The position numbers and the translations under genes are program-made. The notes below the pieces were generated by a model. That model worked only from the letters and a program-made list of their open reading frames with translations, ran no database searches and was not told the DNA's origin. From Patescibacteria group bacterium (lineage in GTDB: Bacteria > Patescibacteriota > Patescibacteriia > UBA2591 > UBA4787): a stretch of DNA of 64,000 nucleotides. Shown piece by piece: positions 10,278-50,812 of this stretch; position 1 is the stretch's first letter; every line of letters starts with the position of its first letter. The stretch lies in the NCBI GenBank assembly GCA_028715115.1, contig JAQUSN010000002.1, positions 132,944-196,943 of the forward strand, read 5' to 3'.

Positions 10278-10281
10278 TTTT

Positions 10282-10650
10282 ATGAAAATATTTATTGCTC
10301 ATTCAAGTAATTATGATTTTAAAAAAGAACTCTACGAGCCGCTTAGAGATTCTTCTTTAGACAAAGAACATAAAATTATTTTGCCTCAAGGAAAAGGATT
10401 TGAAACGATTACTCGAGATGTAATAAATGGATGTGATTTATTAGTGGCAGAAATTTCCTATCCCTCGACGGGGCTGGGCATTGAGTTGGGCTGGGCTGAT
10501 GTGGCTAAGATTCCGGCCATTGGCGTTTATAAAGAAGGAACGAGACCGTCTCCGGCAGTGAATAAAATGATAAAAGACTTTATTATTTACAATGATGCCG
10601 ATGATATGATCAATAAATTAAGAGAATATATTTCTAATCTTAAAAAATAA
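10282..10650 (+). CDS. Nucleoside 2-deoxyribosyltransferase-like / DNPH1-like Rossmann protein.
   Basis: Has the YPSTGLGIELGWA motif, which resembles the catalytic Glu loop of the NDT/Rcl family. 122 aa. Recognition by eye only. Confidence 0.4.
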   Translation: MKIFIAHSSNYDFKKELYEPLRDSSLDKEHKIILPQGKGFETITRDVINGCDLLVAEISYPSTGLGIELGWADVAKIPAIGVYKEGTRPSPAVNKMIKDFIIYNDADDMINKLREYISNLKK

Positions 10651-10651
10651 T

Positions 10652-11209
10652 ATGGGTAAGAAAGAAATACTAAATATTGTTGATGAAAACGATAATATAA
10701 TCGGACAAGAACAGAGAGAAAGAGTACATAAGAGTGGATTATTACATCGAGAAATTCATGTCTGGGTTTATAACGATAAAGGCGAGGTGTTATTGCAGAA
10801 AAGAGCGATGGATAAAGATACTTTTCCTGGATTATTTGACGCATCTGTTGGTGGACACGTTGACTTAAACCAAACCTATGAAGAAGCTGCCACTAGAGAG
10901 CTAGAGGAAGAAATTGGCGTTAAGGCTGACATAAAAGATTTATCTTATCTTATTAAAATGAGAGACAAAGATTATGATCAAAGTACCGGAATGACCAATA
11001 ATAGATTTTGGGTAGTTTATGCTTATAAATATAATGAGAACAAAGATAATTTAAGATTAGAAAAAGGAAAGGCGATAAGTCTGGAATTTTGGCCAATAAA
11101 CAGAATTATGAACGCCTCGGCTGAAGATAGAGAAAAATTCATTCCATTTTTGCTCGGCGATAAATATTCAATAATTTTTCAAGAAATAAAAAATTTAATT
11201 AAACAATAA
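10652..11209 (+). CDS. NUDIX hydrolase (IDI-like).
   Basis: Nudix box GGHVDLNQTYEEAATRELEEEIGV. Confidence 0.8.
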   Translation: MGKKEILNIVDENDNIIGQEQRERVHKSGLLHREIHVWVYNDKGEVLLQKRAMDKDTFPGLFDASVGGHVDLNQTYEEAATRELEEEIGVKADIKDLSYLIKMRDKDYDQSTGMTNNRFWVVYAYKYNENKDNLRLEKGKAISLEFWPINRIMNASAEDREKFIPFLLGDKYSIIFQEIKNLIKQ

Positions 11210-11210
11210 A

Positions 11211-11987
11211 ATGAAACTATATTTTAAAAATAAAAGCGGATTAAGATTGTGCGGTGTTTTGGACGAGCCGAAAAAGAAGGGTGACACTTGCGTTATTCTT
11301 TGCCATGGCCTGGGAGTAGATAAAAATGAATACAATAATATTTTCGTAAAACTTAAAAAGCGATTAGTACAAAAAGGAATGCCAGTTTTCAGGTTCGACT
11401 TTATGGCACATGGCGAAAGTCAAGGCAAGTCGATAAACATGACTATTATTAAAGAAAAATATGATTTAGAGGTCGCGGTAAGTTTTTTGAGAAAATTAGG
11501 TTATAAAAATTTCGGTATTTTGGGCGCCAGTTTTGGCGGCGGGGCAGTGGCGCTTTTTTCGGCTCAAAATAAGAAAATTATCAAAGCCGCAGTTTTATGG
11601 AATGCTTTAATAGACTATCATAGCATTTTAAAACCGACTTTGTCCTGGCCAAAACGTAATTTTGGTTCAGAGGCGATGAAAAGGTTAAAAAAATCAGGCT
11701 ATATTTTCATTGGCGGTTCTAAATTTAAAATGGGCAAGAAATTATTTTCGGAAATGAAGAAATTACATCCTGGCCAGATAATGGCTAAAACAAAAATACC
11801 GACTTTGTTTATCCACGGCACTAATGATAACTATATTCCATATCAAGACTCAGTTAAATATTCCAAGCTATTTAAAAATGCTAAAGTTAAGTTGCTTAAA
11901 GATGCCCAACACGGTTTTGATGATAGTAAAGAACACACCGAGGAGGCGATAAAATATACAACAGATTTTTTCGCCAAATTCATATAG
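11211..11987 (+). CDS. Alpha/beta hydrolase.
   Basis: Nucleophile elbow GASFGGG; C-terminal D/H region. Confidence 0.75.
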   Translation: MKLYFKNKSGLRLCGVLDEPKKKGDTCVILCHGLGVDKNEYNNIFVKLKKRLVQKGMPVFRFDFMAHGESQGKSINMTIIKEKYDLEVAVSFLRKLGYKNFGILGASFGGGAVALFSAQNKKIIKAAVLWNALIDYHSILKPTLSWPKRNFGSEAMKRLKKSGYIFIGGSKFKMGKKLFSEMKKLHPGQIMAKTKIPTLFIHGTNDNYIPYQDSVKYSKLFKNAKVKLLKDAQHGFDDSKEHTEEAIKYTTDFFAKFI

Positions 11988-12001
11988 TAGATAAAAATAA
12001 A

Positions 12002-12031
12002 AATGAGTAGCTTAAAACTCATTTTTATTTT
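12002..12031 (+). terminator. Intrinsic terminator after the alpha/beta hydrolase gene (aatgagt / actcatt, then a T-run).
   Basis: 7-bp stem followed by tttatttt. Confidence 0.6.
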
Positions 12032-12039
12032 AAAAGAAA

Positions 12040-12064
12040 CCGGCGCGGAACTAGTCCGCGCCGG
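12040..12064 (-). terminator. Intrinsic terminator for the minus-strand GC-rich operon (ccggcgcgga / tccgcgccgg). The stop codon sits in its loop and a T-rich run follows on the minus strand.
   Basis: Perfect 10-bp GC stem. Confidence 0.6.
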
Positions 12065-12269
12065 GAGATGGTTCTTGCTGCTGGAAGAGTGCCTTGTTCG
12101 GCATGCCGTCGGTTATGACTACGAGAACAGAGATGAGGGCACTGCCTATCTGCCACAGGATGAGTCTGATCACGAAAGGGCCCGGCATCATACAGAGCCC
12201 GATAGTGAGTCCAAGCCAGGCGCCTATGATAGACCAGAATATCACGTCTCTTGTCCCTAGATCCCTCAT
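12051..12269 (-). CDS. GC-rich small 2-TM membrane protein (72 aa), second gene of a two-gene GC-rich operon.
   Basis: Its ATG overlaps the upstream stop (ATGA). It has two hydrophobic helices and is visibly GC-rich in an AT-rich genome. Confidence 0.5.
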   Translation of the reverse strand: MRDLGTRDVIFWSIIGAWLGLTIGLCMMPGPFVIRLILWQIGSALISVLVVITDGMPNKALFQQQEPSPGAD

Positions 12270-12490
12270 GACGTCCCCGTAGGGCGGGCGTCAAGAGGCG
12301 TTTTTTCCGTAGCGATTTCGTACAAGAAAACCAGGATCAGGCTGATCACTAACCAGGCGCTGGTCAGTAACGGGACGCCCAGGCCGATGCACAGAACCTT
12401 CCATAGGTTCAGCATGTCGAAGTGGCAGATCCAGATGACGTACTTGATGCACGTCACGAACCAGACGATGAAACACACTAGAGAAATCAC
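12266..12490 (-). CDS. GC-rich small 2-TM membrane protein (74 aa; weak resemblance to PLD_N/YxlE-type small membrane proteins).
   Basis: GTG start with AAGGAGG 5 nt upstream. A promoter-like TTGACA ... TATAAT element lies upstream on the minus strand. GC-rich. Confidence 0.5.
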   Translation of the reverse strand: MISLVCFIVWFVTCIKYVIWICHFDMLNLWKVLCIGLGVPLLTSAWLVISLILVFLYEIATEKTPLDARPTGTS

Positions 12491-12577
12491 TCCTGCCTCC
12501 TTAGTTAGGTTGTATTTAATATTATATATTTTTGGTTAATTGTCAATCCATTTATACACCGAATATCTTAAATAACC

Positions 12578-12606
12578 TTGACAAGTTTCCCCCTTTATTT
12601 TATAAT
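12578..12606 (+). promoter_or_regulatory. Near-consensus sigma70-type promoter for rplY (TTGACA, 17 nt, TATAAT).
   Basis: Exact hexamers with 17-nt spacing, about 30 nt upstream of the rplY ATG. Confidence 0.65.
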
Positions 12607-12637
12607 TTTATCACTAACTATCTAAGTATTATTTGAT

Positions 12638-13324
12638 ATGACATTATCATTAAAAGCCAAAAGCCGTACGATTACTGGCGGCAAGGTAAATGAATTAAGG
12701 AAAGAAGGCCAAATTCCGGCTATTGTTTACGGCCATGGTTTTAAAAATGTAAACATTATCGTTTCTGATGGCGATTTTAAAAAAGTTTTTAAAGAAGCGG
12801 GCGAGAGTAGTTTGGTGAGTTTAGTCGTTGACGATGCTAAGCCGATTCAAGTTTTGGTTCACGATATTCAATATCAACCGCTTAAAAACACCATTCAACA
12901 CATTGATTTTTATCATGTCAAAGCTGACGAAAAAATTACTGCCGAAGCAGGCTTACGTTTTATCGGCGATGCTCCGGCTGTTAAAGAATTAAGTGGCGTT
13001 CTTGTGACCCCAATTACCAAAGTTAAAATCGAATGTCTACCCAAGGACCTGGTTCATGAATTAGAAGTTGACATTTCAACCTTAAACACCTTTGAAGATG
13101 CAATTAGAATAAAAGATTTAGTTGTGCCTGCAGGAATAAAAATTGTCGGATCGCTTGACGAAGTTGTGGCTTTAGTTGAAGCACCGAGAAGCGAAGAAGA
13201 ATTAAAGAGCTTGGAAGAAAAGCCAGAAGCCAAAGTTGAAGATGTTAAGACCGTAAAAGAAGAAACCAAGGCTGCCGAAGATAAAATCGAAGAAGAAAAA
13301 ACTACAGAAAAAACAGACAAATAA
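12638..13324 (+). CDS. rplY: Ribosomal protein L25 / general stress protein Ctc (long form with acidic/lysine-rich tail).
   Basis: N-terminal L25 fold sequence (KSRTITGGKVNELRKEGQIPAIVYG). Confidence 0.85.
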   Translation: MTLSLKAKSRTITGGKVNELRKEGQIPAIVYGHGFKNVNIIVSDGDFKKVFKEAGESSLVSLVVDDAKPIQVLVHDIQYQPLKNTIQHIDFYHVKADEKITAEAGLRFIGDAPAVKELSGVLVTPITKVKIECLPKDLVHELEVDISTLNTFEDAIRIKDLVVPAGIKIVGSLDEVVALVEAPRSEEELKSLEEKPEAKVEDVKTVKEETKAAEDKIEEEKTTEKTDK

Positions 13325-14352: not shown

Positions 14353-15352
14353 TCAGATCATCTAGTTTTCCATCCATAATTTCATCGATATTAAACCAGC
14401 TTTTATTAATGCGGTGATCGGTGATGCGGTTTTGTGGGAAATTATAAGTTCTGATTTTTTCTACTCTTAGGGCGTGGCCGATTTGGCTGCGGCGTTGCTC
14501 GGTTAGATCGCCGAGCCTTTTTTCTTCTTGTTGAGCCATGAGCTTTGCGCGCAAAACTTTCATGGCTTTTTCTTTATTTTTTGATTGAGAGCGTTCTTCT
14601 TGAGAAGTGACGACTAAACCGGTCGGTTTATGGGTAATACGCACCGCAGTTTCTACTTTTTGTACGTTTTGGCCGCCCTTGCTAGAGGAACGATAGGTGT
14701 CAACGTCGATTTCATCGGGGCTAATGGTGATGTCGTGCTCGGTTGCTTCCGGTAAAACAGCGACCGAGGCCGTAGAAGTATGAACGCGGCCGTTTTTTTC
14801 CGTTTCCGGAACTCGCTGAACGCGATGCACGCCGCTTTCATATAATAAGATCGAGTAAGCCTTAGGTCCGCTGATACGGAAAACAATTTCTTTATAGCCG
14901 TAAATATCAGTTTGATTGGCGCTTAAAGTGTCGATAGACCAGCCCTGTCTTTCGGCAAAACGGCTATACATACGGAAAAGATTAGCGGCAAAAAGCGCAG
15001 CTTCTTCTCCGCCAGTACCAGCCCTAATTTCTACAATGACATTATTGAAGCTTTGGCTCGGGTCATCCTCGTTGATTAATTGTTCTTTTTGGGATTTTAA
15101 ATCATTTAATTCAGTTTGGGTAAGCGAGAGCATCTCTTGATCTTTTTCTTGTTTTAACATTTTTTCTAGATCGGTGATTTGCCGATCGAGAGAATTTATT
15201 TTTTCTAATTTATTAAGGCGTTGTTTGATTTGGGTATATTTTCTTGATAGCTCGGTTAATTTATTTTGATTAACTAAAACTTCCGGAAGCGTCATTTCCG
15301 TTTCTAGCTCACTAACTTGTTTTTTTAAATCATCGAGTTCGGACATATTCAT
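14315..15352 (-). CDS. prfA: Peptide chain release factor 1.
   Basis: GGQ motif ([19 protein letters not shown]) and RF1-type C-terminus ([16 protein letters not shown]). Convergent 38-nt overlap with the upstream gene. Confidence 0.9.
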
Positions 15353-22958: not shown

Positions 22959-22987
22959 TTGACAAAATCATAAAAATGCGTTAATAT
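22959..22987 (+). promoter_or_regulatory. Consensus promoter for the GC-rich gene (TTGACA, 17 nt, TAATAT).
   Basis: Seen directly in the sequence. Confidence 0.55.
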
Positions 22988-23049
22988 AATAAAAGTGGCG
23001 GCATAAGTCGCTGCAAATTCCGATTATTTAGATAACGAAAGGAGTCCTC

Positions 23050-23427
23050 GTGGACGAAGCCCTGATCGGATTGATTATCCCCAAGTCTCCTTGGGCTATG
23101 GCCAAGGAGGCGAATACGCTGGGTGCGCTGATAACCATACTGCGCACTTACTACTTCTTCATGGTGGGCGTGCGCGACTGGAGACAGGTCGCAAACAACA
23201 TCAACGAGACATCGGTGCAGATTGTGGAAGAAACATCCAGCTGCGTAAGAGCAGAGGTTGATTTCACGGTTATGACCGATGCAGGTCTCTTCATCGGCGC
23301 GATGGCCGTGCACGTCAAGGCGCTCAATGCAACTTTGGCCGACAGCAGAATGACACAGCTGTCGACCTGGCTACAAAGAGCGATCGGCAACAGTACGTTC
23401 GTTCAGGTGATCCTGAGGACGAGATAG
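23050..23427 (+). CDS. GC-rich hypothetical protein (125 aa).
   Basis: GTG start with AAAGGAG 5 nt upstream. Consensus promoter and downstream terminator. Visibly GC-rich. No motif recognised. Confidence 0.5.
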   Translation: MDEALIGLIIPKSPWAMAKEANTLGALITILRTYYFFMVGVRDWRQVANNINETSVQIVEETSSCVRAEVDFTVMTDAGLFIGAMAVHVKALNATLADSRMTQLSTWLQRAIGNSTFVQVILRTR

Positions 23428-23446
23428 ACGGAGGTTTGACCATTCG

Positions 23447-23477
23447 GAGCCGTCGGCTTAGGCCGGCGGCTCTTTTC
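23447..23477 (+). terminator. Intrinsic terminator (gagccgtcggc / gccggcggctc, then a T-run).
   Basis: GC stem plus T-run. Confidence 0.55.
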
Positions 23478-23496: not shown

Positions 23497-23727
23497 TTGA
23501 CGCAAATAAATAAGCAGAATATAATAAAAGAGATGGGGACTGGCACCACGCCTCAACTGCTGGGCCTTTAATGCCTCATCGAACGCATAAACTGGAGGTT
23601 ATCTATGCTGAGACGGCTTCTGAAGGACGAGAGCGGATAGTCGAGACGACGAAGAAGCGGAGCTCGCATAACGCGAGCTCGCACTCCCGGGGCGCACTGC
23701 GCTCTGGGAGTTTTTTTATGGAGTGGA
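23497..23727 (+). other. GC-rich mini transcription unit: exact TTGACG, 17 nt, TATAAT promoter (23497-23525); SD GGAGG; 11-codon ORF MLRRLLKDESG (23605-23640); strong 12-bp terminator plus T7 (23694-23727).
   Basis: All elements seen in the sequence. Possible small RNA or leader peptide. Confidence 0.35.
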
Positions 23728-23767
23728 TAACTTTAATTTACAAATTTTATTTATAAAATATAATAAA

Positions 23768-23985
23768 AAAAGACAAAGACAGAATCATTGTGTAAGTACA
23801 CCGGGTCTACGGATCCGGTGGGCATACCCAGGGAGGTATGAGATTGGTTTGGTAAGCTGAATGCCCGGCTAGCCCTTGTTCCGAATTCTTAGGAGCCCGG
23901 AGCCGAGGTACGCCAGGGAGAGCAGCGCCAGCCCCGGGGATGCAGATTGAGCTTCAGCTCTCTGCTCCCCGGGTATTATTTTTTT
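23768..23985 (+). ncRNA. Candidate GC-rich structured RNA of about 220 nt ending in an intrinsic terminator (cccgggga / tccccggg, then T7). Identity unknown.
   Basis: Non-coding and roughly 60% GC by eye. A promoter-like TTTACA ... TATAAT element lies upstream. The strong terminator at 23933-23985 is immediately before the rplJ promoter. Confidence 0.3.
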
Positions 23986-24008: not shown

Positions 24009-24204
24009 TTGACACTTAATTATTTTTGATTATACTAATTATATCTTAACCGTAGACAGTGTGGCCTTCGACGAATCGTCGGAGTTAATACACCAGCCCA
24101 CCGAGGTCAAAAGACATTTTATTGTCTGCGGTTATCCGCAGATTATTTATTATTACGAATTACATATTTTTAGATTTAATTTTTGGTTTTTAATTTTACT
24201 TTAT
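24009..24204 (+). promoter_or_regulatory. rplJ promoter (TTGACA, 16 nt, TATACT) and structured L10 leader with hairpins cgacgaatcgtcg and ctgcggttatccgcag.
   Basis: Promoter hexamers and several stem-loops in the 170-nt 5' UTR. Consistent with autoregulatory L10 leaders. Confidence 0.5.
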
Positions 24205-44905: not shown

Positions 44906-44964
44906 TATAAGCAAACCCCCCGACCAAACGTCGAGGGGGTGCACGTAAGTGCATTGAACCTCCT

Positions 44965-45174
44965 TTAGCTCTGAAATGTTATCTTGCGCCAGGTTATCCT
45001 GACGAGCGTGACCGGTATCAGAACGGCTATCGTGGCATAGAACCGGAGTCGTTTGAGCGCCTTGTCCATCCATTCGGCAATTACCACCATCAGCCAGATG
45101 ATGAGCTTGCCCAGTTCAGCAGACTCAGCGCTCGACGGTCCGTAGGGATCGGTGGGCGAGAAGTCGTTGTTCAT
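44965..45174 (-). CDS. GC-rich small 2-TM membrane protein (69 aa).
   Basis: ATG with AGGAG 5 nt upstream. It is driven from a palindromic divergent promoter. A GC-rich hairpin terminator lies downstream (44907-44940). GC-rich. Confidence 0.5.
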   Translation of the reverse strand: MNNDFSPTDPYGPSSAESAELGKLIIWLMVVIAEWMDKALKRLRFYATIAVLIPVTLVRITWRKITFQS

Positions 45175-45192
45175 AATAACTCCTATATAATA

Positions 45193-45251
45193 AATATAGC
45201 ATATTTTTTACACTTAGTCAATATTGACAAAAACTAAAAATATGCTATATT
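45193..45251. promoter_or_regulatory. Nested palindrome forming symmetric divergent promoters. The outer 16-bp inverted repeat (aatatagcatattttt / aaaaatatgctatatt) supplies a TATATT -10 on both strands. The central palindrome gtcaatattgac supplies TTGACA (+) and TTGACT (-).
   Basis: Seen directly in the sequence. Spacings are 16 nt (+) and 17 nt (-). Confidence 0.6.
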
Positions 45252-45276
45252 AAAAATAACCTTAAAGGAGGTTCGT

Positions 45277-45654
45277 ATGTTCGAACGTGCAGATTCCGGA
45301 AGCGGTCATCGTTTCCCCGAACCGCCCGAGCCGGCAGAAAACTTCCGCTGGTTCATGGAAGCCAGCCATGCCCACCGCGTCCTACCGATCCGCGTAGTCG
45401 GTGGCCCCCTGAAGTCCCTTAACGGTGACGGGCTCTTGAGCCTTGAGTTCGCTCTGGCCCGCAGAAGCGGCCGCCGGAATGAGCCCATGGTCGCCGAGAT
45501 CCACGTCCTCAGTCACGAGCAGGTTACCGACAGCATGATGTCGGTAATCGGTCCGGTAGTCGCCGTTGACGGTTTGCGAACCGAGTCGCACCGGTCGGCG
45601 ACAATCACCTTCGATCACATCAAGCAGACGGGAACGTTGCGGTTTCTGCAGTAG
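45277..45654 (+). CDS. GC-rich hypothetical soluble protein (125 aa).
   Basis: AAAGGAGG 7 nt before the ATG. A perfect terminator lies downstream. One 60-nt stretch of the ORF counted by hand was 37/60 GC. Confidence 0.55.
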   Translation: MFERADSGSGHRFPEPPEPAENFRWFMEASHAHRVLPIRVVGGPLKSLNGDGLLSLEFALARRSGRRNEPMVAEIHVLSHEQVTDSMMSVIGPVVAVDGLRTESHRSATITFDHIKQTGTLRFLQ

Positions 45655-45669
45655 AGTTCCCGAGCACCC

Positions 45670-45702
45670 GAGCGCCGAGGTCCTCTCGGCGCTCTTCTTT
45701 TT
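45670..45702 (+). terminator. Intrinsic terminator (gagcgccgag / ctcggcgctc, loop gtcct, then a T-run).
   Basis: Perfect 10-bp stem. Confidence 0.7.
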
Positions 45703-45726
45703 ATATATTTTAAAACAAAAAGAGAA

Positions 45727-45754
45727 GGCGAGCCGCAAAGAACTGCGGCTCGCC
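45727..45754 (-). terminator. Perfect 10-bp hairpin (ggcgagccgc / gcggctcgcc) with a T-rich run on the minus-strand side. Candidate terminator of a minus-strand transcript from the 45.76-46.1 kb structured region.
   Basis: Seen directly in the sequence. Confidence 0.4.
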
Positions 45755-45757
45755 ATG

Positions 45758-45960
45758 TAACGGGAGGGCGGACCTGCCCACAAACGGTCGACTTGACTTT
45801 GCTCCCCTTGCCCAAGTCAGTGGTCGACTGTCCGCCTCCTGGCGTACCCCGTGAAGTACATCGATTCAGTCAATCCTGGCACATATTTCCGTCACAGGAC
45901 TCGCAGTAGAGTGACAGAAAAGCGCGGGTCCTTCGTTCACCACGCCCCAAAGGAGGTTAT
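45758..45960. other. GC-rich structured noncoding segment. It holds a long imperfect hairpin (gggagggcggac ... gtccgcctcc enclosing gtcgacttgactt / aagtcagtggtcgac) and further stem-loops. Candidate sRNA or cis element.
   Basis: No ORF has start signals. It contains an orphan AAAGGAGG with no start codon in range. Several long complementary segments. Confidence 0.3.
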
Positions 45961-46213
45961 ACGATATAGGGACAGGATTTAACCGATGTACGGAAGGAAA
46001 CCCATTTAAGGGAAAAGGGACGCCAATAACACCTCCGATTGTGATATAATAGCAGAAAGGTAAAATTTTGTCAAGTCCCAAAGTGGCATTATAAGGTGGT
46101 TTTATTAACATTTAGTCAGAGCTAAACTTGATGATTTGCACATTAATGCTTCCAATTATTTAGTAAAATGGTATTATATATATTATTAGTTTAATCATTA
46201 AAAACATATAATT

Positions 46214-46711: not shown

Positions 46712-46745
46712 GGGCGGGACTCCGGTTAGGGAGCCCCGCTTTTGA
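46712..46745. terminator. Bidirectional terminator between tspO (+) and the GC-rich minus-strand gene (gcgggactcc / ggagccccgc, then tttt).
   Basis: Imperfect GC stem with T-runs on both sides. Confidence 0.5.
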
Positions 46746-46762
46746 AAGCCGAACGGCCGCGA

Positions 46763-47044
46763 TCAGGTTGTGGGCTTGGGGGCGGGGACCACGTGGGCCC
46801 AGAAGTTGCAGCCCAGAGGGTCGCCGATCATGAGTGCATCACCGCGCCCCGGCTTCTTCTCGGAGATCACGAGAAAGCCTGTTCCGTTGGGCGGAGGGGA
46901 GACCCACCTCTGGTTCGTCGGATCGAAGCCGACCATTGCCTCGGAATAGGCCGGGCTTATCTCGTGGGGTTGAGAGGGGATGACGGTGCCGTCAGCGGGG
47001 AAGACAACCGTTCCGCTTACCGGCGTAGTTGCGCCTTCGGTCAC
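46763..47044 (-). CDS. GC-rich hypothetical protein (93 aa).
   Basis: GTG start with AAGGAGG 5 nt upstream. A TTGACA, 16 nt, TATATT promoter on the minus strand. GC-rich. Confidence 0.55.
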   Translation of the reverse strand: MTEGATTPVSGTVVFPADGTVIPSQPHEISPAYSEAMVGFDPTNQRWVSPPPNGTGFLVISEKKPGRGDALMIGDPLGCNFWAHVVPAPKPTT

Positions 47045-47093
47045 GAATACCTCCTTAGGGTAATGAATGTAGGGGACTTACTCGAACATTTAT

Positions 47094-47172
47094 AATATAC
47101 AACTTTTATACATTTTGTCAAGATTACAGGTGAATTTTATTAACTTGACTTTTGACTAAAATCGTTTATAAT
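47094..47172. promoter_or_regulatory. AT-rich divergent promoter region. Minus strand: TTGACA (47116-47121) and TATATT (47094-47099). Plus strand: TTGACT (47145-47150), 16 nt, TATAAT (47167-47172).
   Basis: Seen directly in the sequence. Confidence 0.55.
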
Positions 47173-47197
47173 ATAAAACAACAGGAGGAATTACCGA

Positions 47198-47629
47198 ATG
47201 AAGTCATTGCTAACCGCAATCGTGATCGTGGTGGTAATAATCCTCCCGTCACGACTGGCGGCACAACCCGTTTCCCCGTGGTCCAAGGTCTGTCTGGAGA
47301 GCTCGTCCGACGAATGGAGCAGGTGCGAAAGATACACGCGCCTGATTGATTCGTCAGGATCATGGATTGTCATCAAGAGGACGCTTTCTCGCGATGGGAT
47401 ACTGGTTCTCGACGTTTCCTACCAGGCGAGTACCGACAGTATCAAGTGGGCATGTTATGATGTCTGTGATGATACGGTCAGCGGCACTGGTGACATTGAA
47501 GCGATCCTCGGCGACATCTACGACTACTGGCAGGATGGCGTCTTCGCAGACCTACCGATCGTGGTTCGTGGAGGGGTGTGGTCAATGATCGCCCCCTTCA
47601 AGCTATCGGAGGGCGAGCTTAGTGAGTAG
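47198..47629 (+). CDS. GC-rich secreted protein (143 aa; signal peptide, 4 Cys).
   Basis: AGGAGG 8 nt before the ATG. N-terminal signal peptide (MKSLLTAIVIVVVIILPSRLAAQP). GC-rich. Terminator at 47634-47667. Confidence 0.55.
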   Translation: MKSLLTAIVIVVVIILPSRLAAQPVSPWSKVCLESSSDEWSRCERYTRLIDSSGSWIVIKRTLSRDGILVLDVSYQASTDSIKWACYDVCDDTVSGTGDIEAILGDIYDYWQDGVFADLPIVVRGGVWSMIAPFKLSEGELSE

Positions 47630-47745
47630 TATCGGCCGGGCATGGCGCGAAAGCGTCATTCCCGGCCTTATATTTTAATCCCCAGTCGCGATTGACAAAC
47701 TCGGTTTATGCTTCATAATTAAATATTAATTCGTGATTTCATTTA

Positions 47746-50037: not shown

Positions 50038-50052
50038 ATTATTTATAAGAAA

Positions 50053-50074
50053 GCCGCCCCGGTTAAGGGGCGGC
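50053..50074. terminator. Bidirectional terminator (gccgcccc / ggggcggc). It overlaps the 3' coding end of the minus-strand Cys-rich gene.
   Basis: Perfect 8-bp GC stem between convergent genes. Confidence 0.6.
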
Positions 50075-50302
50075 AGTAAACATGGACGGGGATTGACCTC
50101 TGTGGCGGACCCGTGTCCGGGTTTGTCTGGGCCGAACGAGCGGGGAGATGGGGCAGGCGATCATCTTCTCTTGATAGTATCTTGAGCAAGTAGCGCAGCA
50201 GGACTTAAGACATTTGTTGGTCTTGGGGCATCCTTTTGCCAGGTTACATCCTTCGCAGCATGGATGTAGTTTGCCACCACAGCCAGCAGGGTTACTGTCC
50301 AT
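50063..50302 (-). CDS. GC-rich Cys-rich small protein (79 aa from the SD-preceded Met; 11 Cys in CC/CxxC patterns, metallothionein-like N-terminus, basic tail).
   Basis: GGAGG 7 nt upstream of the ATG at 50302. The ORF-track ATG at 50326 has no SD. A TTGACA lies at about 50356-50361 on the minus strand. GC-rich. The last 8 codons are encoded by the terminator hairpin. Confidence 0.45.
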   Translation of the reverse strand: MDSNPAGCGGKLHPCCEGCNLAKGCPKTNKCLKSCCATCSRYYQEKMIACPISPLVRPRQTRTRVRHRGQSPSMFTAAP

Positions 50303-50812
50303 AGGAGAGCCTCCATAGTTTGGCATATCTATAGCTTAATACTATTTTAGAGGTTTGTCAATTATTTATTTATATATTTATTTTACGACACTTGATAATT
50401 TAATTATCTTTTTTTGTTTATTTTAATAATCAGATTTTTAATAAAAGAGGCTTAAGTTTTATTAAAATCATTGTTAAAAAGGGGAAACATGGACTAAACC
50501 GATAAAATCGAGCATATCTGATAAATAACTGAACTTAGATACATATCCTTGATCTATTACCTATGTGCCCTACAATTTTAAAAAATTTTTATAATAAAGT
50601 TGAGATAGATATCAAGAATAGAGCAGTGAAAAACAAAAAATATTTTTTTAATAAAATAGATGGAGTATATATCATCTTTTAAGGTTAAAAAACAAACAAA
50701 ATAGGCCTTTTATTAGAAGACCTATTTTGTTGAAGATCCTGACTTGGCTTCGTAAAAGGTATATTGTGCGACGCTGTATATCTAGAAAAACCTTATATCC
50801 CCTTTAATATAT

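Follow-up and report, generated by a model that had tools for sequence, protein, structure and literature searches.

A GC-rich two-gene unit encoding predicted hairpin membrane proteins upstream of rplY in a Patescibacteria chromosome

The two-gene unit and its predicted products

The window analysed here is a 64,000-nucleotide stretch of contig JAQUSN010000002.1 from a Patescibacteria group bacterium, and on its minus strand, between an alpha/beta hydrolase gene and rplY, lies a GC-rich unit of two small overlapping open reading frames (ORFs), each predicted to encode a membrane protein with two transmembrane (TM) segments. ORF1 (12266-12490, 74 aa) starts with a GTG at 12490 and ends with a TGA stop at 12268-12266, and ORF2 (12051-12269, 72 aa) runs from an ATG at 12269-12267 to a TAG stop at 12053-12051. 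The ATG of ORF2 shares bases with the TGA of ORF1, so that the two genes overlap by ATGA (12266-12269). The sequence read directly places a Shine-Dalgarno (SD) element, AAGGAGG (12502-12496), 5 nt ahead of the GTG. The frame of ORF2 is closed by a stop seven codons upstream of its ATG, it contains no alternative start codon, and the ATG is preceded only by a weak GGGGA.

Both ends of the unit carry recognizable signals on the minus strand. A consensus scan finds a promoter-like site at 12519-12546, consisting of TTGACA (12546-12541), a 16-nt spacer and a TAATAT that ends at 12519, with 10 of 12 positions matching the consensus; the site is AT-rich and host-like in composition and stands back-to-back with the rplY promoter. 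At the distal end, the promoter/terminator scan and the inverted-repeat search both detect an intrinsic terminator (12030-12064) with a perfect 10-bp stem, nine pairs of which are G-C, formed by CCGGCGCGGA and TCCGCGCCGG at 12064-12040. Its 5-nt loop, CTAGT, carries the TAG stop of ORF2, and the stem is followed by TTTCTTTT; over the whole 12030-12064 feature, the tract 3' of the stem reads TTTCTTTTAA. The ORF list, the promoter/terminator scan and the repeat finder agree on the layout. The initial annotation had described a GC-rich, minus-strand pair of 74- and 72-residue ORFs overlapping by ATGA, with a GTG start after AAGGAGG and a second stop codon inside the loop of a perfect 10-bp terminator, and every sequence feature that it listed was found where it had been placed. 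The repeat finder also returned a 21-nt direct repeat of uncertain significance (12156-12176) that is identical to 12332-12352 at 18 of 21 positions and lies in equal codon phase in the two ORFs, where it encodes VI(R/S)LIL.

The unit is ~55% GC, with per-segment values of 0.49-0.57 over 12050-12499; the sequence on either side has 0.24-0.36 and the window as a whole 0.376 (37.6%). GC content at codon positions 1/2/3 is 0.44/0.39/0.76 in ORF1 and 0.55/0.42/0.67 in ORF2, and a chi-square statistic of codon-position composition separates both from shuffled sequence (p<0.0005 and p about 0.0005, respectively). The GC content at third positions (GC3), 0.76 in ORF1 and 0.67 in ORF2, compares with 0.30-0.34 in host genes, that of ribosomal protein L25 included, and a difference of this kind is the usual mark of DNA that was recently acquired from a source of higher GC content. 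T makes up 0.47 of second codon positions in ORF1 and 0.41 in ORF2, matching the host's own membrane proteins. The grand average of hydropathy (GRAVY) of ORF1 is 1.26, a value that none of 2000 shuffles reached in an open frame of 60 aa or more, and that of ORF2 is 0.69; the region's other five ORFs, which are antisense or in alternative frames, are hydrophilic, with values of -1.0 to 0.2. Because the codon-position composition, the T-rich second positions and the hydropathy are all specific to the SD-initiated frames, we conclude that ORF1 and ORF2 are protein-coding now or were so until very recently.

Each ORF shows two 19-residue Kyte-Doolittle peaks of 1.9-2.3. ORF1 is predicted to form a 2-TM hairpin from residues ~2-24 and ~32-57, followed by a 17-residue hydrophilic tail whose charged residues (E58, E62, K63, D67 and R69) sum to -1, and ORF2 is predicted to form a hairpin from residues ~9-28 and ~32-52 that contains a PGP turn and is followed by an acidic tail of 20 residues (D54, K59, E66 and D72; net charge -2). 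A low-confidence AlphaFold model, computed from the single concatenated sequence, places helices at residues 2-24 and 29-62 of ORF1 and at residues 1-26 and 32-55 of ORF2. With two peaks and two modelled helices per ORF, the earlier description of both products as tiny 2-TM proteins is supported. By an estimate on the Hessa scale, all but one of the four segments fall below 0 kcal/mol. The two ORFs are not paralogues; a BLASTP comparison of one against the other gives E=6.1. To the extent that sequence allows, these features support reading the unit as a coupled operon that encodes two 2-TM proteins.

A lineage-specific locus and an ORFan pair

The agreement of independent assemblies, Logan contigs of four runs among them, establishes that the cassette region is real DNA and no assembly chimera. 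A 650-nt intergenic stretch containing the unit is identical in a contig of the NCBI metagenome-assembled genome (MAG) GCA_028686935.1 and in a Logan contig of SRR22315508, and shorter Logan contigs of SRR22315507 and SRR22315509 cover each junction separately. A second MAG, GCA_028713815.1, differs by one base over the same stretch. This single-nucleotide polymorphism (SNP), G>A on the plus strand at 12137, is the sole polymorphism that the assemblies show in this stretch and replaces Leu45 of ORF2 by Phe (codon assigned by hand). The Logan contigs of SRR22315509 end on either side of this SNP (12126-12138), and those of SRR22315507 leave 12254-12390 without coverage (a gap within 12253-12391); these breaks hint that variants of the cassette co-exist within samples.

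The initial annotation had placed the unit between the terminator of the hydrolase gene and the rplY promoter, and these are indeed its neighbours. On the left, the alpha/beta hydrolase gene (11211-11987, identified by Pfam matches) is followed by an AT-rich, perfect 15-nt hairpin (11994-12031) that is convergent with the terminator of the cassette. On the right, the rplY promoter (12578-12606, plus strand) matches the consensus at 12 of 12 positions and precedes rplY itself (12638-13324, a profile match to Ribosomal_L25p). The genes of the neighbourhood encode FtsW, a 122-aa ORF, a Nudix protein, the alpha/beta hydrolase, L25, a DUF3048 protein and PrfA, and the L25 of the host is closest to that of Magasanikbacteria-type MAGs.

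Comparison of this locus with that of related genomes shows that the cassette belongs to a block confined to this lineage. In every relative that keeps the neighbourhood (three closer ones and more than ten distant ones), FtsW is followed directly by rplY, DUF3048 and prfA. The three closer relatives (L042-L044) have FtsW and L25 proteins that are ~70-75% identical to those of the window and a gap between the two genes of 100-122 nt, against 2360 nt in the window, and the gap is similarly short in the more distant relatives. The additional DNA (10278-12577) holds the 122-aa ORF, the Nudix gene, the alpha/beta hydrolase gene and the GC-rich cassette, and it is not present in any relative examined. 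In an alignment of the rplY upstream region, a comparison that the initial annotation had proposed, conservation begins at the -35 box, extends as far as the start codon and is absent further upstream. The rplY promoter is therefore ancestral and shared with relatives and forms the right-hand limit of the lineage-specific DNA, and because conservation stops at its -35 box, the cassette and the cassette's own promoter both lie in that DNA.

Horizontal gene transfer is common in Patescibacteria (PMC12455944). Direct or inverted repeats of the kind that might bound a mobile element were sought in the flanks, and only AT-rich matches at chance level turned up. The other three genes of the block (10282-11987: the 122-aa ORF, the Nudix gene and the hydrolase gene) have host-like GC content, unlike the two-ORF unit; this suggests that they were gained independently of the GC-rich cassette, either earlier or from within the phylum. 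The 122-aa ORF has a weak match to nucleoside 2-deoxyribosyltransferase (PF05014, E=0.0016).

Neither protein has a detectable relative. Profile searches of both ORFs against Pfam, PHROGs, NCBIfam and PADLOC returned no accepted match at E<=10, and the one blaPAM profile match in these scans (E=0.13) was set aside as noise. Exact protein look-up found neither ORF on record, a word-indexed search of 5.8 billion proteins gave no match to either, and a sequence search of the PDB was equally empty. When the concatenated ORFs were compared with 1.84 billion representatives using phmmer, a single match was obtained (E=1.2e-4), to seven stretches of a 3706-aa protein, and was judged to be a hydrophobic or repeat artefact. 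The phage, plasmid, IMG/VR and JGI metagenome searches were made at the DNA level and are independent of gene calling: an IMG/VR scan with each ORF, a scan of JGI metagenome DNA with peptide 8-mers of both ORFs, and blastn and tblastn searches of phage (50,697 records) and plasmid collections all returned nothing, although in the last of these the low-complexity filter may mask TM segments. No similarity to the element was found by tblastn and blastn in the loci of ~70 relatives, and no paralogue of either ORF exists within the window. A spurious antisense 85-aa ORF called in the Logan data was tried as a handle on variant copies, and its cluster proved to be a singleton from the same organism. 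The accessions yielded nothing in the literature. By sequence comparison, ORF1 and ORF2 are an ORFan pair and a singleton.

A probable moron-like accessory cassette and competing explanations

We consider it probable, at roughly 65%, that the unit is a horizontally acquired, self-contained and moron-like bicistronic accessory cassette that encodes two ORFan membrane proteins of hairpin form and resides in the chromosome of a Patescibacterium resembling Magasanikbacteria. Morons, which are elements of temperate phages, are defined by a promoter and terminator of their own, a GC content unlike that of their neighbours and absence from related genomes, and the moron gene 15 of phage HK97 encodes a small inner-membrane protein, gp15, that excludes superinfecting phage by blocking entry of their DNA (PMC3594210). 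The cassette is similar in having its own promoter and terminator (as consensus matches), a differing GC content, an extra position relative to related genomes and a cargo of small membrane proteins. It differs in being bicistronic and in lying in the chromosome between FtsW and rplY, outside any phage or prophage, and its ORFs have no sequence relation to gp15/YebO or to any other moron product. The term moron-like is an analogy: the unit resembles morons in its architecture and in the type of its cargo but is not counted among them.

From its sequence signals we infer how such a cassette would work. The host-type sigma-70 promoter (12546-12519) would drive an mRNA with a short leader, on which the strong AAGGAGG would start translation of ORF1 at its GTG. 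A ribosome ending at the TGA of the ATGA overlap would re-initiate at the ATG of ORF2, so that the two products would be made jointly and in roughly equal amounts; because ORF2 has a single start codon, a frame closed just upstream and only the weak GGGGA before it, its synthesis should depend on translation of ORF1, at a near-equimolar ratio. The transcript would end at the 10-bp G+C hairpin and T-run that contain the ORF2 stop. The two unrelated 2-TM products would most likely enter the cytoplasmic membrane and, since two hairpin proteins would be co-made in the same membrane, the simplest reading is that they act as subunits of one small hetero-oligomer. Our best guess at their function is a non-lytic accessory role in the envelope like that of small moron-encoded membrane proteins, for example in phage or toxin exclusion or in immunity, an assignment made by analogy that we regard as tentative and more doubtful than not.

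Several results weigh against an acquired and functional cassette of this kind. No search recovered a homologue of ORF1 or ORF2, so neither conservation nor a ratio of non-synonymous to synonymous substitution (dN/dS) supports a functional protein, and the sole SNP in the cassette is non-synonymous. ORF length carries no weight: dinucleotide shuffling of the 461-nt region leaves an open frame of 74 or more codons in 81% of cases, and several phases of the real region are open as well. The NCBI annotation leaves the gap empty and calls neither ORF, and the Logan caller picked the antisense 85-aa frame instead. The AlphaFold model has a predicted local distance difference test score (pLDDT) of 64 and a predicted template modelling score (pTM) of 0.36 and supports helicity only, and the second segment of ORF2 is marginal, at an estimated +1.6 kcal/mol on the Hessa scale. 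Finally, no donor was found, and the cassette has no phage gene, integrase or other mobile-element gene nearby.

Of the alternatives, the one that survives best, while still unlikely in our view, is that the cassette is inert or decaying DNA, a recent fragment of a higher-GC donor whose ORFs were coding there and are non-functional here. Such a fragment could well be a singleton without relatives, be passed over by gene finders and have a codon usage mismatched to its host, and it could accumulate non-synonymous change, as seen in all three substitutions that separate the two MAGs across the GC-rich cassettes of the window (3/3; codons assigned by hand). A decaying fragment would not, however, be expected to retain two intact ORFs, an intact terminator and an undecayed GC3, nor to carry an AT-rich promoter of the host type together with a strong SD in just the positions required, and the recurrence of the complete architecture in at least eight other cassettes argues for maintained expression signals.

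A phage-derived lysis cassette of the holin/antiholin or pinholin type, in which the two hairpins would permeabilize the membrane, with one of them serving as a timing inhibitor of the other, is considerably less probable. Class II holins and pinholins are ~65-95 aa proteins with two TM segments, and the products of 72-74 aa with two segments each, their adjacency and their foreign composition fit this class in general. The resemblance ends there: neither ORF matches a holin profile of PHROGs or Pfam at E<=10, tblastn finds no counterpart in the 50,697 phage records and IMG/VR has none, and the unit has no endolysin, spanin or other phage gene beside it. The C-terminal tails, with net charges of -1 and -2, are acidic where the cytoplasmic tail of a holin is highly charged and basic on balance, no dual-start motif is present, and the two ORFs are not homologous, unlike typical holin/antiholin isoforms. 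Moreover, a near-consensus promoter and a strong SD would imply constitutive, and hence lethal, expression of a holin. The holin/antiholin-like label of the initial annotation is not supported, and a holin seems less likely than a non-lytic envelope role.

The possibility that the unit is a structured non-coding RNA, with the ORFs as by-products of GC-rich sequence, is just as improbable. GC-rich islands in AT-rich genomes are classically non-coding RNA genes, and here too a GC-rich body lies between a promoter and a terminator. Long ORFs are open in several frames, as GC-rich DNA would give, the minus strand has a folding z-score of -2.57, and other cassettes of the window (23768-23985, z -4.9, and 45720-46046, z -3.2) are RNA-like and have no coding periodicity. 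The z-score of the present unit is modest, however, and similar on the plus strand (-2.14), and the folded sequence includes the terminator hairpin; no Rfam family matched at gathering thresholds, and only noise (E=3.3 and 8.6) appeared in E-value mode up to E=10. The strong 3-base periodicity falls in exactly the SD-initiated frames, and the strong SD is correctly spaced. An RNA gene would not be expected to have second codon positions rich in T or a pair of clean hydrophobic hairpins.

Least probable of all is a single 4-TM gene of ~146 aa split by a 1-nt frameshift with an accidental ATGA, for although one indel in a window of ~24 nt would fuse the frames, given that ORF2 is closed seven codons upstream, and the concatenated product forms four helices in the low-confidence AlphaFold model, the junction is identical in all independent assemblies, ATGA coupling is very common as a genuine arrangement, hydrophilic segments stand at the ends and starts of the ORFs as in separate hairpin proteins, and the concatenated query found no fused homologue among 1.84 billion representatives.

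Other small membrane proteins offer partial parallels. PLDc_N (PF13396)/YxlE, Transgly_assoc/YmgE (PF04226) and Pmp3/YqaE (PF01679), tiny families with two or three TM segments, belong with the two ORFs to a common class of small hydrophobic hairpins, and no match to any of them was found in Pfam at E<=10; the earlier PLD_N/YxlE-like label fails with the absence of PF13396 from both ORFs. The 'IIGAWLGLTIGLCMMPGP' of ORF2 loosely resembles, by eye, the 'G-x-I-A-G...MPG' pattern of YmgE, a likeness that we treat as a lead only. The paired SMR proteins (EbrAB and YkkCD) and paired FluC/CrcB are homologous pairs of 4-TM proteins that form heterodimers of opposite topology. They too are encoded by adjacent, coupled small ORFs of similar size, an arrangement that implies 1:1 stoichiometry; unlike them, ORF1 and ORF2 have two TM segments and are dissimilar both to each other and to those families (no Pfam or NCBIfam match). 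A type I toxin-antitoxin arrangement was also considered, and the consensus scan found no antisense promoter over the ORFs; the only plus-strand sites within 11800-12800 lie at 12540 and at 12578 (the rplY promoter).

GC-rich cassettes elsewhere in the window

The 64-kb window holds at least nine other units of the same design, each with a TTGACA/TATAAT-like promoter in AT-rich DNA, usually an SD of the GGAGG type and, after a GC-rich body, a perfect GC hairpin with a T-run. Their GC-rich composition sets in at the start codon or beyond it and stops at the terminator. Retro-insertion of foreign transcripts was rejected as their origin, since the GC-rich composition does not begin at the transcription start. 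The cassettes have no mutual nucleotide similarity, and their promoters are alike only in the -35/-10 consensus.

Five of the further cassettes show significant coding periodicity, with GC3 of 0.66-0.76, and the ORFs of all five are without a Pfam or PHROGs match. A plus-strand cassette at 22959-23473 has a TTGACA-17-TAATAT promoter, the SD AAAGGAG and a 12-bp terminator (23446-23473), and contains a GTG-started ORFan of 125 aa (23050-23427; GC3 0.70, periodicity p<0.0005) for which no viral or plasmid match was found. Two divergent cassettes at 44916-45221 (minus strand) and 45224-45694 (plus strand) have a 30-nt AT-rich promoter region in common and a terminator each; they encode a hydrophobic ORFan of 69 aa (44965-45174) and an ORFan of 125 aa (45277-45654; GC 0.6-0.66), both of which are called as hypothetical genes in GCA_028713815.1. 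A second divergent pair, at 46714-47121 (minus strand) and 47145-47680 (plus strand), flanks an AT-rich TspO gene. Its minus-strand member holds a 93-aa ORFan that NCBI leaves uncalled (46763-47044; GC3 0.76), and its plus-strand member holds a secreted-looking ORFan of 143 aa with a signal peptide (47198-47629; PHY10_02690 in the NCBI annotation), the product of which has one 45%-identical JGI homologue (P0003) on a 1.7-kb contig of small unannotated ORFs. In another minus-strand cassette (50045-50361), with a GGAGG SD and a terminator, a Cys-rich ORF of 79-87 aa (MDSNPAGCGGKLHPCCEGCNLAKGCPK...) lacks significant coding periodicity (p=0.23), and the two MAGs differ there by 2 nt at 50294-50295.

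The remaining units are RNA-like. Two GC-rich plus-strand units of ~180 nt and ~220 nt (23497-23711 and 23737-23985) lie between pyrH and rplJ, each with an 11/12 promoter and a strong hairpin with a T-run. The first (23530-23718) has no coding periodicity, only an 11-codon ORF and a folding z-score of -3.1, and the second (23768-23985) likewise lacks periodicity, at a z-score of -4.9; both are candidate novel small RNAs. The minus strand carries a GC-rich unit of ~330 nt (45720-46074) whose promoter is TG-extended and matches 11 of 12 positions and whose terminator has 12 bp. It shows no coding periodicity (p=0.48), a z-score of -3.2 (45720-46046) and no Rfam match at E<=1, and is a candidate for a novel structured RNA. 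None of these three sequences matched any Rfam family. No tRNA, tmRNA or Rfam family was detected at threshold anywhere in the 64 kb, despite the presence of several GC-rich, stably folding intergenic units.

Two further observations concern RNA elements outside these cassettes. Just upstream of rplJ, 24032-24150 on the plus strand gives a sub-threshold match to the L10 leader (RF00557; 31.4 bits against a gathering threshold of 44, E=0.006) and is probably a diverged but genuine L10 leader. Relatives labelled Saccharibacteria carry an intergenic island, rich in GC (0.59-0.62) and 390-520 nt long, at ~2.1-2.2 kb downstream of rplY (L032 3350-3746, L069 2234-2624 and L068 7093-7615); the first two islands are near-identical, and the third has a 42-nt block in common with them at 93% identity. 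The L032 island has no Rfam match at gathering thresholds and may, with its counterparts, be a conserved unclassified RNA.

Comparison of the two MAGs shows an uneven distribution of their differences. There are 11 over ~17 kb, of which seven fall within 155 nt of the GC-rich part of prfA (14617-14771), and the remaining four all lie inside GC-rich cassettes (12137, 47550 and 50294-50295). This clustering suggests local recombination, strain mixing or faster change of the GC-rich parts.

Intergenic GC-rich islands are rare in ~300 kb of the relatives' loci, and those that could be identified are rRNA or tRNA. It is conceivable, though we hold it to be rather unlikely, that the whole of this AT-rich chromosome is peppered with short, mutually unrelated GC-rich ORFan genes and RNA-like units among its housekeeping genes, each insulated by a consensus promoter of host type, a strong SD and a perfect terminator. 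If true, this would point to an undescribed route of gene gain in ultra-small episymbionts, such as the uptake of DNA from a partner or host of higher GC content, one gene at a time, with promoters fitted afterwards, or alternatively to selection that keeps these transcripts GC-rich; ORF1 and ORF2 would then be a captured membrane-interface module.

For a Patescibacteria genome, the present analysis adds two unannotated ORFan small membrane proteins, and it illustrates that standard gene callers miss small genes of foreign composition in AT-rich MAGs, as they did at this locus. Provided that the proteins of the cassette are made, they become candidates for a role in the envelope or at the host interface of this episymbiotic lineage, where little is known of such roles. 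The class of cassettes is of more interest than the single operon, and it could give a testable handle on how symbionts with reduced genomes acquire and domesticate single genes.

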